Source: Vezdaea acicularis
Taxonomy: Eukaryota
NCBI GenBank assembly: GCA_026025075.1
Contig: JAPEUI010000019.1
Coordinates: 184,261-204,260 of the forward strand
Direction: 5' to 3'
DNA: 20,000 bases
Part shown: one piece after another, positions 373 through 8,116 of the stretch
Numbering within the stretch: position 1 is the first letter of the stretch
How the letters are laid out: the number at the start of each line of letters is the position of its first letter
The notes under the pieces: generated by a model
Databases searched by the model: none
What the model was told of the DNA's origin: nothing
What the model saw: the letters and a program-made list of their open reading frames with translations, nothing else
Translations under genes and position numbers: made by a program

Positions 373-1149
373 ATGGCCGGACCTCCACGAAATACCGTGG
401 ATCGTCTCGACAGGCCCAGTGCTTACTATCTAGGGCGGGTGAGTTCAGCCTTGTATCAGTATTCTTTGTGACGCAAACTCATGCGGCGTGCTTGAGCAGA
501 ATCGAAAACGCAAGTTTGACCGGGATCGCGATGAGAGGGAAGAGAGGGAGAAGTCACCGGCGGAGGAAGAGGACCCATTGAAAGACGCAACAACCCTCTA
601 TGTTGGAAACTTGTAGGTCTCCTTCGACGGAAGCTCTTCTTTGTGTGGATATTTTCAATTTACGCATACAGGTCTTTCTATACCACTGAGGAACAGATTC
701 ATGAGCTCTTTGCGAAGTAAATGCCCCCTTGGCTCCGATGCTCCTTATGTGTGGCTAATTGGCTATTCAAACAGGTGCGGAGAGATCAAGCGTCTGGTAA
801 TGGGACTCGACCGCTTTAATAAGACGCCTTGCGGCTTCTGTTTCGTGGAATACTACACACATCAGGATGCGCTCGACTGTATGAAGTATATTGGTGGAAC
901 TAAGCTCGATGAGCGCATAATCCGCACAGATCTGGACCCAGGGTTCAAGGAAGGGAGACAATACGGGTATGTCACAGCTTCGCCTAGCTTCTACAACAGC
1001 TCTAACCAGAGAGATACAGGCGAGGAAAGTCTGGCGGCCAAGTGCGCGACGAGTACCGCGACGAGTATGATCCCGGACGTGGAGGTTATGGTCGTGCGGT
1101 TGAGATGGAGCGCCAGAAAGAAGAGGACGAGTACGGGAAAGGTAGGTAG
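373..1149 (+). CDS. CBC2: Nuclear cap-binding complex small subunit (CBP20/NCBP2), 181 aa, 5 exons
   Basis: join(373..438,500..612,672..716,775..966,1020..1149) with GT-AG introns gives a continuous frame. It contains [50 protein letters not shown] (RRM, RNP2/RNP1) and [28 protein letters not shown], both characteristic of CBP20. Confidence 0.96.
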
Positions 1150-1315
1150 ATTGGACTATCCATCTGAACCAGTAGCAAAGTGTGCGGCGCCTGGATAAAC
1201 ATGTGATTGCCTCGTTTCCTTCCCAGGTATCTCCGAGTGCGTTCACCGATACTCCACACAATGCACCCCGAACGCCCTCAAACATGCTTCCACCCAATTG
1301 CCCTTTCCAGAATGC

Positions 1316-1881
1316 TCAAAGATACTTCTTCCCCGCCCCCACCACTCTCGCCTTGAACACCGGACTCGTGACCACCTGGTCGACCCTATAAAACGGATTC
1401 ATGATATTCTTGACCCAGACCTCATACACATCCGCGAAAAAACTCTTAATCGCCTCCTCCGTGGCCGGACTCGTCGGATTCGCCGCCACACTCGTACTCG
1501 CCCTCGTCGTCCCGCTCGGTTGGTGTAGCAGCAGAAACTTGATATTGCCCCCCGTGATCCAGCACGAGACGTAGGAATTGTAGAAGCGGTCGATCAGTTT
1601 GAGGTACCTGCGCATTTTTTCGTCAATTTACCAACTTCTTCTACTAATAATACTACTGCTGGGGTGTTTTTTTTTTGGATGAAGAAAAGCTCTTACATTT
1701 GTCCGCCGTTCCATTGGACCTCTTCCACAATGTCCAGGCTTGAATGCACGACGAACTGGTTTATGTGTCTTGCATCCTCGCGGAACCGCGCGAGGCCGTC
1801 GCCGCCGGCTTTGGAGGTGCCGAATTCGAGCTCGAAGAGGGGATTGTCCTTCGTGCCCACTATGCTGAAATAATACGACAT
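1316..1881 (-). CDS. TRS20: TRAPP complex subunit Trs20 / sedlin (TRAPPC2), 158 aa, 2 exons
   Basis: complement(join(1316..1607,1697..1881)), intron GTAAGA...GCGCAG. Sedlin-family motifs MSYYFSIVGTKDNPLFELEFG, HINQFVVHSSLDIVEEVQW, MYLKLIDRF and FFADVYEVWVKNIMNPFY. Confidence 0.95.
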
Positions 1882-2069
1882 CTTCCCTGCTGTTCGGGTA
1901 TGAAAGGTGGGAAGCCGTGGGGCGCATTGGGGGAAAGCTTGTGTTGGCAGATCCCCGCTCACCGCCCTCGGGAATTTCGAAAAAGCTTGGCACTCGCGAC
2001 GTCGAGCTTTCGAACTTAACCTTCAATCCGCGATCCCTCCCATATCCCCCATCGTCACCCCCACCCACA

Positions 2070-2863: not shown

Positions 2864-5800
2864 TTACCCCTTCGCCAATTGCATCCTCTCCACCCCTGGA
2901 CCTCTCCCCTCCCTGACCGCCCTCCTGCCCTCCACAAAGACATTTTCCCTCCTCCCCACGCCAAGGCCCAAATCCTCAATCCTAAGCCTCTTGATATCCA
3001 CGGTATCCATCTCCTCATCCTCCGCCTGGCGCTTAAGCGGGATCTCCGCTCCGCCAGGCAGACGGACACTGCGGGCCCCAAGGGTCCTCTTCATGTCTTC
3101 GAGCAGAACCTGCATGGGACAGATATACGCGATAGCGTTACGTTCGCACCACGCGAGAACGTGTCCACAGACGCGCCCGTCGCTGTTCGAGATCACCCAC
3201 GCCCCGGAGTCGCCACCGACTGTGTTGCATGTCAGTCACGAGGAAAATTGGAGGGAGTTGGGAAGATGGAACTAACCGCCAAAACGGCCCATGACGTGCC
3301 AACTCCGGGAGTATGAGCGGCGTCCAAAAACCTTCACGGAGCTCATAGCCGGGCTGATCATGCCGCCCTGTAAGCCGCTCGTGCGGCCAAGACAGTGCAC
3401 TTCGAGGTTACCCAGCTGGTCCCCTGGTGCGACGGCTGTGGGATAGAGGTCTTCCTCCGGCTTGAAGAGCGGATGTCTGCAGACCGGATCGAGCAGATCC
3501 GGGTGTGCCTGCGCGCCACCTTCTCTGCTGAAGCGCCGCCCGCCTTGGATCAGGTTGTGCGGCTGTAAGCGGCTGTTGGAGACTTTGAGCAACGCCCAGT
3601 CGATCTCGTGCTTGATGCCGTTGCGCTTCCAGCGCCGCACGCCAGAGGAGGCGTGTACGTGGCCCAGTGTATGCGAGTCGAGGTGCTCTTCATCACGCTC
3701 TTCGTCGTTAGGGAAGAAGTTGTCATCGACGTCGTCGATCGCGGGCTGCGTGATGAGGTACTGGGGCCCGTCTTCGACATCGATGCCCGGGACGTTTCCC
3801 CAAGGCATGCCGGCCTCGTCGACATCGCTTTCTTCGCTTTCGCTAACGTCGTCGTCGAAATCGGTGTCGTAATCTTCGTTATAGGCAGAGTCGTAGCCGG
3901 CGTCATCTTCGTCTGAGATCTCGAAGAGGTCGTAGCGGTCGTCTGTGTTGATGTCCGGGAGCCAGGGACGCATTGACTCGAAACCGGGGGCCTGTTGCTG
4001 CGAGTACCAATTTGCGCTGGATCGCATCACGTCGGCATCATCTTCTTCGTCGCTCTCTTCTTCGCTCGGGGCGTCGAGCGAGTGGTGGACGGTCATACCG
4101 TAGGGTTCTCCGTCTAGAAGAACCACTCCTCCGTATGACACAGGTGGAAGATGCTCTTCGTCCCGGTATGCGCCGATAGAGGCACCGTTCAGGGGGCGCT
4201 GCTGATGAAACGGGTTCATGACAGCATTGCCATCATCCACGCCAGCCCCTGAACGGAGTGGTAGCGTTCGCTTCTTGCGTCTGACCTTCTTGCCAGAGGA
4301 CCGACGGAGCTTCCCTCTGCGCACCTTGAGGTCAAAGACCGATTTATCGTATGCAAAGCGGCGGCTCAAGACTCCTTTGACCTTCCCAACGCTCGAGCAT
4401 GTGACGAAGATAGTCGGGCGTGTGTTAAATGGCGTCTCACCCACCCCGATGAGATCGATAGTGACGGTCTCCATTGAGCTTTTCAGTGCCCTGGTAAGCA
4501 AGTGCTCCAGACGAGGAAGTAAAAGGCTATGCCACTCTTCGAGATGAGAAGGGAGTATTTTGACCGGATGAATCTTCAGCCTGGCCACTGGGGCCGCAGA
4601 CGGGGATGCTGACTTTTTCTCTCGATTTCTCACCGGTGTGACATTCGAGAGCATCAATTCTCTGTTCCTGGCCTCTTCTACGAGCCTTGAAGCTTCCTCA
4701 TCCGGGATGGAAAGAAGACTGTACTCCATGTCATTTTGGCTGATCATCTCGAGTTCAGACCCTTTCTTGTCCACTTCGGGCGCCTCATCCACACCTAGGG
4801 ACAGTCGAGCACGTGCAATCGACCCTGTGGCTGGATCGATATCCAAGTCTCTACTATATGGCTGAGACTGGAACGTTTTTGTCTTTGCTTCAAGTTCTTG
4901 CACGATCTTGAATGCCTTCGCAAACTCTCGTGATGTCTGCAAGGTGTCCTCATGATCGTAGCCTAAGGTCTTCTGGCGAGCGACGAGGACGGTCTCCAGT
5001 AACCTGCAGATCTTCTGATACATGTTCATGATCAGGTAATCCTGCGCAGGACTGTGATGGGGTAGATTCTTGGATTTGGATGGACCCTCCGAGGAGCTAA
5101 GTCGACCAGCCTGGTCGATCTTCACATGAGCTAGATGCATCGCTGCTTCCAAGGCATCAGGATGATCTACTCCCATTGTCTGGCGATAGTCGTTCAAGAC
5201 CCGTTCGTGGATCACTTCAGCCTGGTCGTACTGTCCTTTGAGACGGTACTGCAATGCTAGCGTTGTGGCTAGGCGTAATGAATGAGGATGTGACGCTCCG
5301 AATGCTCGTTCAGACTGCATAAGGTGTAGCTTCGTGTCTTCGATGGCGTCCGTTCTTACTGGCGTATTGGAAGGGGACCTCACTTGGGTCGGGGTACCAA
5401 CTGCCGTCGGAGTGGATGCATCCGGCACTTCAGTAAAATCCTTGACAAGGTCGTCTTCCTCCATTGCCGTAGTCTCTCTAGAATAGGGTTCTCCAATAAC
5501 TGTAGGAGTCGAGGCCTCCGTCATCTCGACGGAGCTTACGGATACAGAACTCCTCCGGGATAGCGTAGGGGTAGGACGCTCAAGAGCAAGGGCTGTTGAT
5601 GACCGTTCTTCATCAGTATCGTCAATTGCACAGCACCTCTCGAGGCGTCGAACAACGTTCCAGTAAAGCTCAATCTGCAGCTTTTGGCGCCAATCTTCCT
5701 CATCCTCGAGATGGTGCACTTCATCTGCGCACAGGAGACAACTCTGCACCGCAAGCGTGTAGAGCTTACCGCATTTAGGCAGAAGCTTCTTAACATGAAT

Positions 5801-7366
5801 ATCGACGATCCTCGATTTGAAGACACCACGATCGTACTTGGGCTTCCAGAGTGTCCCAATAGGAAGCCAGAGTCCTATTTCGAGAAGGAGCAGGCCAAGT
5901 CCATAAAGGTCGAATGAAGGATGGAAGCCGTTAGCGCCGCCTAGATCTCCTGGATGTCGATACATGTCAGAAGCAAGATCCCTGGTTGAATCTTCAAGAG
6001 AATACTCGGAAAACAGGTCATAAGAGGCAAGATAAGGGTTCCGTAGGTCCCACGAGTCCTGGTTAGATATGGAAGGTGAAGAGTCCAAGGATGCCTTGGG
6101 AAATAAAAGAATGTTCTCACTTTGTACGTCCCGGTGGGAGATGCCTTTGGTATGCAAATGGAAAAAAGTTGCAGCCAGAGTGTACGCAGCTCTGAAACGA
6201 TCTTCCAGGCATGGCACACTAGATCCACTCCGAAATGGGCCCGGCTGGAGGACTTCTCTAAGGCTGATGGGAGCCATGGTGTGAAGCGGCTTTTGGGCAT
6301 CCTCAGGTCCACGATAAGCGTCTTTTGGCAACTGATAAGCTAATCCGTACCGGGAATACTCTGGGTCCTCGAAATAGCCAACTAGGTTCAAGCTTTTGAG
6401 CATAGAAGGATGGGTCTCATCATCTTCGTGATGTAAGACAGAAGCTAGCTCCTCGAGGGGGTCGATGGAGAGGTGAACACCTGTACTTGAGTAGATGGGG
6501 TCATACGGACAGTACTCGATGAGCACTGGCAACATCAAGGGTCCAGATCTCTCCTTCCAAGGGCTGATAGATGATGTGGGGGCCATACGAAGATAACCCA
6601 TGGTCCTCTGTGAGCCAGGAGGGGGAGGCCGGTCACGGGATGGGGGTTCAGGGGCAGGCCATGAACTATCTCCCGGGAAAACTATTGAGGAAGCGTCAAT
6701 TTTTAGTGATGGCGGTGAGATGAAGTTCCCAGGGGTGGTTGGGACACTTGATGCTGACGGGGTGGGGAAGTCGTGGGTCTCGGTAGTGTCGGGAGGGAGG
6801 AGGAGTGGGTTGTCCCAGCTTGCCGACTTTTTATACGCCCCCATGGCTGAGCCCTGCTCATGTGACTGGCCCGGCAAGTTTTCTCTGAGGGCTCGCCTCG
6901 ACCTCGACAAATCATAGAGCGTGTCAATTGAGGTCGTTAGATCGTTGACGAGGTCCTCGAACTGGCGTTTGTCCCCCGGCCGGATTTGCCCCTTCTCCCC
7001 TAGCCCTTTCTCCTTCTTTTCGGGGAAGGCAACAGCCGTCTTCCTAGCTTCGATACTCTCTGCATCCTCTAACATCTCCTTGATAGATGACATCACGCTG
7101 CTGACCACCCCGCTTAAGCCCTCTCTTTGGATCTTCTCATCAATATCACCAGGTCGATTTGCAGCCTCATCACTCCAGTCCAGGCCCCAAGTAATAAGCC
7201 TGTCTTTCTGTATCCTTAGCTTGCGGTGCAGTGAGTGCAGCTCCGGAGTATTCTCTGTCTTCTTCGGCTCCGTAATGGTCTCATAATACCGCTTCGTCTC
7301 CGAGTACATCTTCGTCAACGGCGCAACTGGGCGCATCAGCTCACTGCTTCTGATCAAGCGCTCCAT
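2864..7366 (-). CDS. Multidomain protein, ~1481 aa: HeLo-like domain, protein-kinase-like domain, TPR repeats, trypsin-like serine protease (resembles proteins annotated as HET-s/LopB domain proteins)
   Basis: complement(join(2864..3219,3277..7366)). HeLo-like: [15 protein letters not shown]...[18 protein letters not shown]. Kinase-like: [42 protein letters not shown]...[14 protein letters not shown]...[18 protein letters not shown]. Protease: [24 protein letters not shown]. Domain calls come from motif recognition, not HMM searches. The start codon is uncertain. Confidence 0.85.
3220..3276 (-). other. 57-nt spliceosomal intron separating the long ORF from the exon encoding the protease catalytic Ser
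   Basis: Donor GTTAGT at 3276, branch site GACTGAC, acceptor ACACAG ending at 3220. Splicing removes the apparent TAG stop (3272-3274) and joins ...MGRFG to VGGDSGAWV... in frame with ORF 2864..3196. Confidence 0.9.
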
Positions 7367-8116
7367 CGTGTCAGTATTAGATGAAGAACAATTAAATTCA
7401 AAAAACTGTTAGAATTCGATGAAGACAGGATCTTCATAGAGCTTTAAACTTGTTGCTCACGAATGCGCGGCGTTGTCGGCAATCTGTCTCCATTTGAAGG
7501 TCGACGGACGTCGTCGCCATGAAGTGAGGTTGGAAGCTCGTTGCCTAAACCGTCGTCGCGTACTTTCAGGCGACCAACGCGGCCGCAACGTCACGGCACC
7601 CAAGGAACCGCGAGATCAGAAAAATGCATCGGATTATCAATAGAACCTTTTCTAAATTGTATCTAATGCCAAATATCGTATCATAAGCCATGCATGCTCA
7701 TTGAAATCGAGTTCAAGGCTCGACGTTGCGGTATCGTGATGTGTGCGCTTAGCGAAGCGGTGATGTGGATGCCCTCGCGCGAGCAAGTTGGTTATCAAAA
7801 TGCCATGCAAGGGGCAGACAATTCATCAAGGAATGTTTTGTTGCATGTCCAAACTATGAATAGTAACACTTTCATCCGACTCATTGATAGTGCGGACTGC
7901 GCTATAGTGATATGAATGCGTTTCTTTGCTATCTCGCGTCACCTTAATCAATGTATCGTGCGTATCAAAAAGCCCGAGTCTTGATATAACACAAAAAGGC
8001 CACCACCGTCCATTGATCAAAAAGAGTGATATTACACATGCTAGAACAGAAGTGCAAGTCCAACCTTTCCAAGTCTTCTACTGCAAGTCCCAGCTATCTC
8101 TTTTTGTACAGGGCGA

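Follow-up and report, generated by a model that had tools for sequence, protein, structure and literature searches.

A probable sltB orthologue in Vezdaea acicularis: HeLo-type bundle, pseudokinase and a protease of predicted NAL1-type fold in one spliced frame

The closest described counterpart of the gene reported here is sltB (AN6132) of Aspergillus nidulans, whose 1272-aa product was described in 2015 and 2016 by Mellado et al. as the protease that signals in the Slt cation/alkaline-pH pathway, with a pseudokinase at the N-terminus and a chymotrypsin-like protease at the C-terminus, joined by a non-conserved linker (PMC4557415, PMC4985261). According to the parts of the 2016 account drawn on here, SltB cleaves its own chain intramolecularly near residue 692, shortly ahead of where conservation sets in again, and processes the zinc-finger factor SltA from 78 to 32 kDa; the S1142A mutant is a null in which neither self-cleavage nor SltA processing takes place, the protease half is inactive by itself, and all SltB-GFP (green fluorescent protein) forms are cytoplasmic, without membrane association (PMC4985261). 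Null mutants show sensitivity to Na, K, Li and Mg as well as to alkaline pH, and in the sections drawn on here the authors describe the pathway as restricted to Pezizomycotina and state that proteins consisting of the C-terminal part only do not exist (PMC4557415, PMC4985261). The gene under study occupies positions 2864..7366, on the minus strand, of a 20,000-nucleotide stretch of Vezdaea acicularis DNA (contig JAPEUI010000019.1, positions 184,261 to 204,260), hereafter the window. With a probability of roughly 0.87, it is the orthologue of sltB, and its product would be a cytoplasmic, zymogen-like signalling protease acting as in A. nidulans. An earlier note on this DNA had proposed an immune or cell-death signalling protein, of which its author knew no functional characterisation. 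The 2015 and 2016 descriptions of SltB supply such a characterisation (PMC4557415, PMC4985261), and the caveat of the same note, a conserved non-immune role, is now the best reading.

The family is identified as SltB by three independent matches, namely architecture, intron place and phase, and six published residues. Pseudokinase, variable linker and protease follow one another in the window protein as in the published layout. The one intron of A. nidulans sltB has its donor at nt 3413-4, i.e., after 1137 codons plus 1 nt, and the split codon precedes Ser-1142 by four codons, as given in the consulted part of the 2015 paper (PMC4557415); in the window, the intron follows 1363 codons plus 1 nt, and S1368 is found four codons past the split codon, the same position and phase. 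In the Aspergillus crustosus homologue P0463 (1266 aa), H1026, D1029, F1119, G1133, S1135 and G1149 equal SltB H1033, D1036, F1126, G1140, S1142 and G1156 minus 7. Besides family membership, the gene model, the four modules, the invariant triad and the family-wide loss of kinase residues were established in this analysis.

The open reading frame (ORF) scan of the window gave a stop-free minus-strand frame of 1378 codons (3272..7408), the chance of such an open run being about (61/64)^1378, or e^-66, by our own arithmetic. The sltB-like gene on this strand consists of two exons, and the spliced coding sequence of 4446 nt translates into 1481 aa. Exon 1 (3277..7366, 4090 nt) comprises codons 1-1363 and the first base of codon 1364, and its ATG at 7366 is the first to agree with the N-termini of the aligned homologues. 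The exon 1 frame ends with ...RFGG*, whereby the stop codon sits within the donor GTTAGT, of a form usual in fungi, beginning at 3276; for Aspergilli, use of an alternative donor has been reported. The single phase 1 intron (3220..3276, minus strand, 57 nt; GTTAGT...CTGAC...CAG) is placed four codons upstream of the catalytic Ser codon; after its CTGAC branch site and CAG acceptor the reading resumes as GGDSGAW..., and the spliced junction peptide reproduces the homologue consensus (V at one position in 87/119). Exon 2 (2864..3219, minus strand) runs from the rest of codon 1364 to codon 1481, with the TAA stop at 2866..2864, and its C-terminal tail, ...AKG, agrees with the end of the Thelocarpon homologue. 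At window positions 2867-2900 (...MQLAKG), the C-terminus is like those of Thelocarpon and Sarcosagium homologues (...QMAKG, ...TAKG, ...LAKA), which suggests a terminal motif conserved across this lineage group, the Vezdaea window protein included. The four modules that the earlier note had read in one spliced frame are borne out by the gene model, Pfam and AlphaFold2 (AF2) with Foldseek; likewise, its triad H1095, D1256 and S1368 is numbered exactly on the spliced protein, and the three positions are invariant in the family. The window protein's public ENA record, P0003, has 1364 aa and ends at the intron. The ORF-based public gene calls P0003, P0012, P0016, P0017 and P0022 all end at this conserved intron and lose the catalytic Ser exon, and 78 models in the 426-protein alignment described below are without the Ser region, ending at the same place. 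The practical consequence is that ORF-based calls of the SltB family, the window protein's own public record among them, drop the catalytic Ser.

The C-terminal protease module (~aa 926-1410; 3080..4591, minus strand, across the intron) is the best-conserved part of the protein in the alignment and was modelled as an alpha/beta fore-domain followed by two chymotrypsin-fold beta-barrels. The AF2 model was made with a stand-in, a 581-aa C-terminal part of the Thelocarpon homologue P0011 aligned to 59 homologues (alignment A2), and had a predicted local distance difference test score (pLDDT) of 76.3 and a predicted template-modelling score (pTM) of 0.76. Its top Foldseek matches in the PDB were rice NAL1 (8pmi_B, 7y77, 8pmg, 8has) with E of 2e-8 to 9e-7, probability of 1.0 and TMt of 0.42-0.50, followed by alpha-lytic protease (TMt 0.68), Lysobacter L5 and S. 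griseus protease B/SGPB (TMt 0.71). The match to 8pmi_B (E 2.1e-8) spans 565 alignment columns, gaps included, vs a target of 409 residues. Judged from this model, the module is a chymotrypsin fold of the NAL1 structural type, in line with the trypsin-like/Nal1 guess made earlier. No protease family was found for the window exons or the homologues with Pfam, NCBIfam and PADLOC, and phmmer of the protease part against PDB sequences returned two spurious matches alone.

The catalytic Ser, S1368 (GDSGAW; 3206..3208, minus strand), equals SltB Ser-1142, and the GDSG Ser is present in 344 of the 348 sequences with a residue there. The catalytic Asp, D1256 (HEIDW; 3599..3601, minus strand), equals A. 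nidulans SltB Asp-1036, as mapped via the A. crustosus homologue, and is found in 422/422 sequences with a residue. The candidate for the third triad member is the His pair H1094-H1095 (MTVHH; 4082..4087, minus strand), predicted from family conservation and model position: its residues are His in 423/425 and 424/425 sequences, and the pair stands directly after barrel 1 strand 3, the place of chymotrypsin His57. The candidates named in the consulted parts of the SltB papers were H925/H939 in 2015 and H1008/H1033 in 2016 (PMC4557415, PMC4985261), whereby H1033A caused a partial loss of function only (PMC4985261). In our alignment, H1033 falls on the first letter of HEIDW, with the Asp three residues further on, and is conserved in 406/422, compared with 419/422 for H1008; the VHH pair lies upstream of the SltB segment 900-1192 that was modelled in 2016. 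Since the VHH pair is the best conserved and follows barrel 1 strand 3 like chymotrypsin His57, in a NAL1-type fold whose first barrel is interrupted by an acidic insert, the catalytic His is probably this invariant pair, upstream of the published candidates. If the offset of 7 also applies to A. nidulans SltB, the pair would be residues ~871/872 there.

A cluster of His residues precedes the catalytic Asp (3599-3685, aa 1228-1256), with H1228 conserved in 419/422, H1232 in 388/423, H1238 in 339/423 and H1253 in 406/422; these residues may be structural, form a metal site or belong to the S2 pocket. Barrel 1 is split between His and Asp by an acidic low-complexity insertion of ~100 aa (~aa 1099-1199; 3770..4072, minus strand), where occupancy and conservation are low and the pLDDT of the matching model segment is below 50. 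Between fore-domain and barrel 1 there is a conserved basic disordered loop (~aa 1016-1045; 4232..4321, minus strand; pLDDT <50 at stand-in residues 115-125).

The second module, ~aa 253-582 (5621..6610, minus strand), has a kinase fold. Pfam DUF7580 (kinase-like) matches at aa 359-577 with 37.9 bits vs a cut-off of 27, Pkinase reaches 20.1 bits, under its cut-off of 31.7, and no literature on DUF7580 was found. The AF2 model of window protein aa 1-600 (alignment A3, pLDDT 75.1) contains a disordered stretch at 164-216 and a kinase fold beyond it; Foldseek with this model gave protein kinases at all ranks from 1 to 50, and a profile built from 66 full-length homologues, run against PDB sequences, gave kinases alone among the best 60 rows. 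Catalytic residues were counted in an alignment of 426 family proteins of at least 900 aa. The beta3 Lys position holds E (223), D (168) or Q (3) and never K (394/394 with a residue). The HxD Asp position holds D in 132/426, with N in 190, H in 34, Y in 25 and S in 12, and the Asp of the DFG position is kept in 327 of the set and lost in Onygenales and Eurotiales. Because the triad is invariant and the kinase catalytic residues are lost across the family, the kinase fold is, for the family as a whole, that of a pseudokinase, and the protease is the conserved enzyme. In the window protein, the HRD is intact, N418 and D450 are kept, the VAIK Lys position is E284, and the DFG reads YDL with its Asp kept. 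With HRD, N418 and the DFG-position Asp retained, residual phosphotransfer may be possible in this lineage.

The pseudokinase is preceded by a HeLo-type helical bundle (~aa 15-165; 6872..7324, minus strand), supported by Pfam and by AF2 helices at 17-32, 41-59, 76-81, 85-112 and 130-162, with pLDDT of 50-85 in the bundle region. In the exon 1 translation, Pfam HeLo (PF14479) matches aa 43-112 with 27.8 bits vs a cut-off of 23.2, and it reaches the cut-off in 9/10 close homologues and 15/36 distant representatives. The match takes in the RLxxWG core motif and begins at model position 33, leaving the N-terminal membrane helix region unmatched. The nearest clusters of the bundle in the Atlas were HeLo, at 0.89 and 0.87, a lead only. 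No HET-S or MLKL bundle was visible among Foldseek ranks 1-50 of the aa 1-600 model, a listing filled by kinases. The killing activity of HeLo/HELL domains relies on an N-terminal helix with transmembrane propensity (PMC10197012). By Kyte-Doolittle hydropathy, a crude measure, the stretch ahead of the HeLo core in the window protein is without such propensity: the maximum over 19 residues before RLxxWG is 0.09, the median of the homologues being -0.23 and a value of 1.6 being reached in 1/167 of them.

Pseudokinase and protease are joined by a hypervariable linker (~aa 585-925; 4592..5614, minus strand), recognised by length comparison with homologues: 351 aa in the window protein vs 77-280 aa in ten homologues. 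Over 306 full-architecture proteins the median is 86.5 aa, P0003 being second longest with 341 aa and P0022 longest with 454 aa. The linker of the window protein houses a TPR insert of kinesin-light-chain type (~aa 684-830, 147 aa; 4877..5317, minus strand), matched by Pfam TPR_12 at aa 699-756 (40.1 bits vs a cut-off of 30.1, E 4.3e-10), by TPR_10 (E 1.3e-8) and by kinesin light chain TPR chains in the PDB (E 1.3e-11). NCBIfam FxSxx_TPR scores E 5e-13 and 48.4 bits, far under the family cut-off of 300 bits. The Pfam families foreseen in the earlier note (HeLo, a kinase-like family and TPR_10/12) were all recovered above cut-off, as HeLo, DUF7580 and TPR_12, and the ranges it had given for the kinase and the TPR (nt 6610-5620 and 5335-4900, i.e., aa 253-582 and 677-822) fit Pfam and the model. 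As to the TPR sensor proposed there, the repeats are indeed present in the window, but not as a family-wide feature. Pfam found TPR in 0/10 and 0/36 scanned homologues, and among 240 rows with precomputed Pfam it was seen for P0003 alone; in the sister sequence from Vezdaea aestivalis the insert is absent and the linker is 100 aa long. The TPR is a lineage-specific insert in the linker.

Other modules occur in variable regions of family members. P0022 (1488 aa) carries a WD40 beta-propeller at 618-922, the same linker site as the window's TPR, and since P0022 groups with Peltula and not with the window protein, the two are independent insertions. P0143, from Lasallia pustulata, has a PX domain at residues 226-312 (E 5e-11), between bundle and pseudokinase, and Dothideomycete homologues (e.g., P0023 and P0025, ~733-759) show weak IQ-like motifs in the linker. 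The linker may be viewed as an insertion site taking repeat and lipid-binding modules (TPR, WD40, PX, IQ-like), which goes beyond the SltB papers.

With exon 1 as query, 887 of the 7999 proteins scored had E<=1e-3; the best 120 of these are Pezizomycotina proteins of 1100-1580 aa named 'protein kinase domain-containing', 'het-s domain' or 'DUF7580'. Searches from distant members added Lecanoromycetes and Eurotiomycetes (Exophiala, Cladophialophora, Endocarpon, Onygenales, Penicillium, Aspergillus crustosus), so that the matches listed span Dothideomycetes, Lecanoromycetes, Eurotiomycetes and small lichen-related classes. Of the genera in which the earlier note had suggested deleting an orthologue, Aspergillus was seen, together with Penicillium, but neither Podospora nor Neurospora is among the matches listed. 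No named species occurs twice among the matches listed from the three family searches. A FastTree phylogeny of 45 rows recovers the fungal classes (28/42 inner branches starred) and places the window protein as sister to Vezdaea aestivalis with 99% local support. Judged from these searches and the tree, the gene appears to be single-copy and vertically inherited. When the window's protease part was run by phmmer against 1.84 billion representatives, no more than 264 proteins reached E<=1e-3; by local hidden Markov models, the best 150 of these comprised 84 with bundle, kinase and protease, 15 with kinase and protease without the N-terminus and 51 with the protease only, the last nearly all short fragments. 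On these search results the protease module is confined to the SltB family, which agrees with the published statement that proteins made of the C-terminal part only do not exist. A few odd, long 'protease-only' representatives (rhodanese plus Bud6, MIT) look like gene-model chimeras and were set aside. In P0310 (Psora testacea, 2142 aa) a DEAD-box helicase stands upstream of the HeLo-pseudokinase part, probably two adjacent genes merged by the caller.

By homology with SltB, the protein would be made as a zymogen, the N-terminal half with its HeLo-type bundle and pseudokinase acting as a very large prodomain or scaffold. It would then cut itself intramolecularly at the C-terminal end of the variable linker, the putative SltB-type autocleavage site lying before conservation resumes at ~aa 925. 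This cut would part the two halves, which must remain functionally coupled, and the protease together with the N-terminal half would clip the C2H2 zinc-finger factor SltA to its active short form. Short SltA would in turn switch on genes for tolerance of high cation concentrations and alkaline pH, sltB itself included. The TPR insert would stay on the N-terminal fragment and may add a lineage-specific partner or localisation. That proteolysis would free the N-terminal part or cut a partner had been envisaged before; both are described for A. nidulans SltB in the 2016 paper, as far as consulted (PMC4985261).

Several points speak against equating the window protein with SltB in full. The link to AN6132 is indirect, running via A. 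crustosus P0463 and published residue numbers, and all functional evidence comes from one species, A. nidulans. The 147-aa TPR insert is without counterpart in the characterised SltB and could change the partners. Moreover, HRD, N418 and the Asp of the DFG position are still in place in the window protein, whereas A. nidulans SltB was described without VAIK, HRD and DFG. One copy of AGGCA, the SltA site, stands 176 nt upstream of the ATG, and the motif is at chance level in the window, with 38 occurrences vs 41.5 expected.

Among the alternatives to an SltB orthologue, the one that survives best is an MLKL-like executioner of cell death or immunity, in which the TPR would sense a signal and flip the pseudokinase, and the protease would free a membrane-attacking HeLo bundle. 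We regard it as improbable, albeit not devoid of arguments. At the N-terminus, a HeLo match above the Pfam cut-off precedes a pseudokinase, some fungal HELL domains occur in kinase or pseudokinase proteins reminiscent of MLKL (review, PMC12881547), and two members carry sensor-type repeats in the linker, TPR in the window and WD40 in P0022. Furthermore, as reported in the consulted part of that work, slt loss-of-function mutations rescue near-lethal nulls of the endosomal sorting complex required for transport (ESCRT) (PMC3244986), and the pseudokinase allele sltB57 rescues likewise with proteolysis and cation tolerance unaffected, according to the 2016 account as far as consulted (PMC4985261). 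However, the phenotype described for SltB nulls is sensitivity to salt and alkali, with no immune or death phenotype in the sections drawn on here, the SltB-GFP forms are cytoplasmic and off membranes, and the stretch before RLxxWG is without transmembrane propensity. The gene is also strongly conserved besides being apparently single-copy and vertically inherited, unlike NLR (NOD-like receptor)/HET genes; the window protein and 46 homologues have no NACHT or NB-ARC match in Pfam, and hence no NLR NTPase; the neighbours are housekeeping genes; and the TPR is not a family feature. The immune or cell-death role put forward in the earlier note is not upheld on these grounds: a cell-death role is possible but unsupported.

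A related idea, compatible with the SltB assignment, is that SltB itself is an MLKL-type unit of HeLo bundle plus pseudokinase fused to a NAL1-fold protease which constitutively releases it by cleavage, and that the freed fragment may have a membrane or trafficking activity of its own. We consider this rather doubtful. If true, it would explain the rescue of ESCRT/vps nulls by loss of sltB or sltA, given that sltA drives sltB expression, as well as the rescue by sltB57 without effect on SltA processing or salt tolerance, and the linker repeats (TPR in the window, WD40 in P0022) may make the switch ligand-responsive. In animals, ESCRT-III repairs MLKL damage, which would be a parallel to such a fragment.

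Even less probable than an MLKL-like executioner is a diverged, rewired member of the SltB family, whose TPR recruits another substrate or regulator and which no longer acts on SltA, or not on SltA only. The TPR is found in the window lineage alone, the sister Vezdaea having a 100-aa linker and no TPR, and the variable regions of relatives host other modules (WD40 in P0022, PX in Lasallia P0143, IQ-like motifs in Dothideomycetes); the authors of the 2016 paper also say that further SltB functions cannot be dismissed (PMC4985261). Against this, the pseudokinase and protease cores of the window protein are conserved as in other members, and the only substrates in the consulted part of the same paper are SltA and SltB itself (PMC4985261). 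A decaying copy or an artefact fusing separate genes can be practically dismissed, since the many database models that end at the intron, P0003 (1364 aa) included, are outweighed by an uninterrupted 1363-codon exon 1 frame, an intact exon 2 frame, the retention of all catalytic residues and nearly all invariant columns, and the same full architecture in 306 proteins.

With the sltB orthologue as the preferred reading, the gene is a conserved activator protease of a stress pathway across Pezizomycotina, ordinary in being an SltB orthologue and not a new immune device. Beyond the SltB papers are the HeLo start of the prodomain, the NAL1 fold, here predicted, with the VHH His as its probable catalytic residue, and the linker as an insertion site. 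The words HeLo and HET-s occur in none of the three SltB papers in the text available here (PMC4557415, PMC4985261, PMC11011638), and no description of a fusion of HeLo, kinase and serine protease was found in literature under the HeLo, MLKL and NAL1 topics.

The genomic neighbourhood within the window is of housekeeping type (acetyl-CoA carboxylase, sedlin, mitochondrial L31, an RRM protein and NudE). The acetyl-CoA carboxylase gene (8120-14627, minus strand) falls into at least three frame segments (8120-8863, 8845-9690 and 9723-14627), which implies short introns, and ends ~750 nt upstream of the sltB-like ATG. Directly past the stop codon of the sltB-like gene lies an exon for sedlin, a TRAPP subunit (1696-2022, minus strand), head to head with an exon for mitochondrial ribosomal protein L31 (2164-2523, plus strand). 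An ORF at 617-1195 (plus strand) has a weak RRM_1 match (E 3.3e-5) and is overlapped by an antisense ORF (770-1315) with no family match. A NudE-type gene (18821-19999, plus strand; NUDE_C E 6.5e-45) extends beyond the window, whose final 1 kb, with 66% G+C and a GC skew of -0.41, stands well apart from the remainder.

Among known systems, HET-S and HELLP share with the window protein the Pfam HeLo match, the RLxxWG core motif included; the N-terminal membrane helix region falls outside this match and no NLR gene is adjacent in the window, in which respects the systems differ. A prion-forming or amyloid motif was not seen either, no search aimed at one having been made. LopB of Leptosphaeria maculans, described with a signal peptide (PMC1325252), was considered as a possible family member and set aside, as the SltB family is without a signal peptide and relatedness was not shown. 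MLKL, the plant MLKL-like proteins and the fungal HeLo/HELL-pseudokinase proteins have in common with it an N-terminal bundle of HeLo/4HB type, a disordered brace and a pseudokinase. The likeness to the MLKL layout pointed out in the earlier note is confirmed by Pfam and AF2, and a HeLo-family bundle opening the 'pseudokinase prodomain' gives SltB this layout. The differences from MLKL are the fused C-terminal protease, the lack of transmembrane propensity in the N-terminal helix, and the cytoplasmic location (SltB-GFP) of a family with no known cell-death phenotype; similarity to MLKL itself was not demonstrated in the Foldseek listing of the N-terminal model, ranks 1-50 being kinases.

Over the whole C-terminal module, the best structural match is rice NAL1 (PDB 7Y77, 8PMG, 8PMI, 8HAS), and we read the alignment span in the model as reaching past the barrels into the fore-domain. 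In NAL1, a His-Asp-Ser triad sits between two barrels and transcription regulators are cleaved (PMC12012508); an active triad requires assembly of NAL1 into a hexameric cage. It differs in that there is no sequence-level similarity, TM-scores are only 0.45-0.50 and the long acidic insert occurs in the fungal family only. No Pfam Nal1 match was obtained in the window or the homologues, with the presence of PF25819 (Nal1_C) in the library not confirmed; bacterial Nal1_C clusters of the Atlas came at 0.91, which is a lead only.

Ssy5, the MEROPS S64 protease of the yeast SPS amino-acid sensor, is likewise a chymotrypsin-like signalling endoprotease with a large N-terminal prodomain, which cleaves itself, remains associated with the prodomain and turns on a latent transcription factor by clipping it, and the SltB authors take it as their working model in the consulted part of the 2016 paper (PMC4985261). 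Ssy5 has neither a HeLo bundle nor a pseudokinase as its prodomain, and the 2015 account, as far as consulted, gives only 25% identity over 68 aa between SltB and Ssy5 and no SPS partners in A. nidulans (PMC4557415). No Pfam Peptidase_S64 match was found in the window exon translations (E<=1) or in ten full-length homologues (E<=0.1), and one cluster among the Atlas neighbours carries Peptidase_S64 in 10% of its members.

The closest likeness is to SltB, in the order of the modules, the codon and phase of the single intron, the HEID-Asp, the GDSG-Ser and the other published residues, and the Pezizomycotina-restricted, apparently single-copy distribution. The window protein differs from it in length (1481 aa vs 1272 aa), in the 147-aa TPR insert of its linker and in keeping the HRD, Asn and DFG-position Asp that are lost in Aspergillus and Onygenales members.

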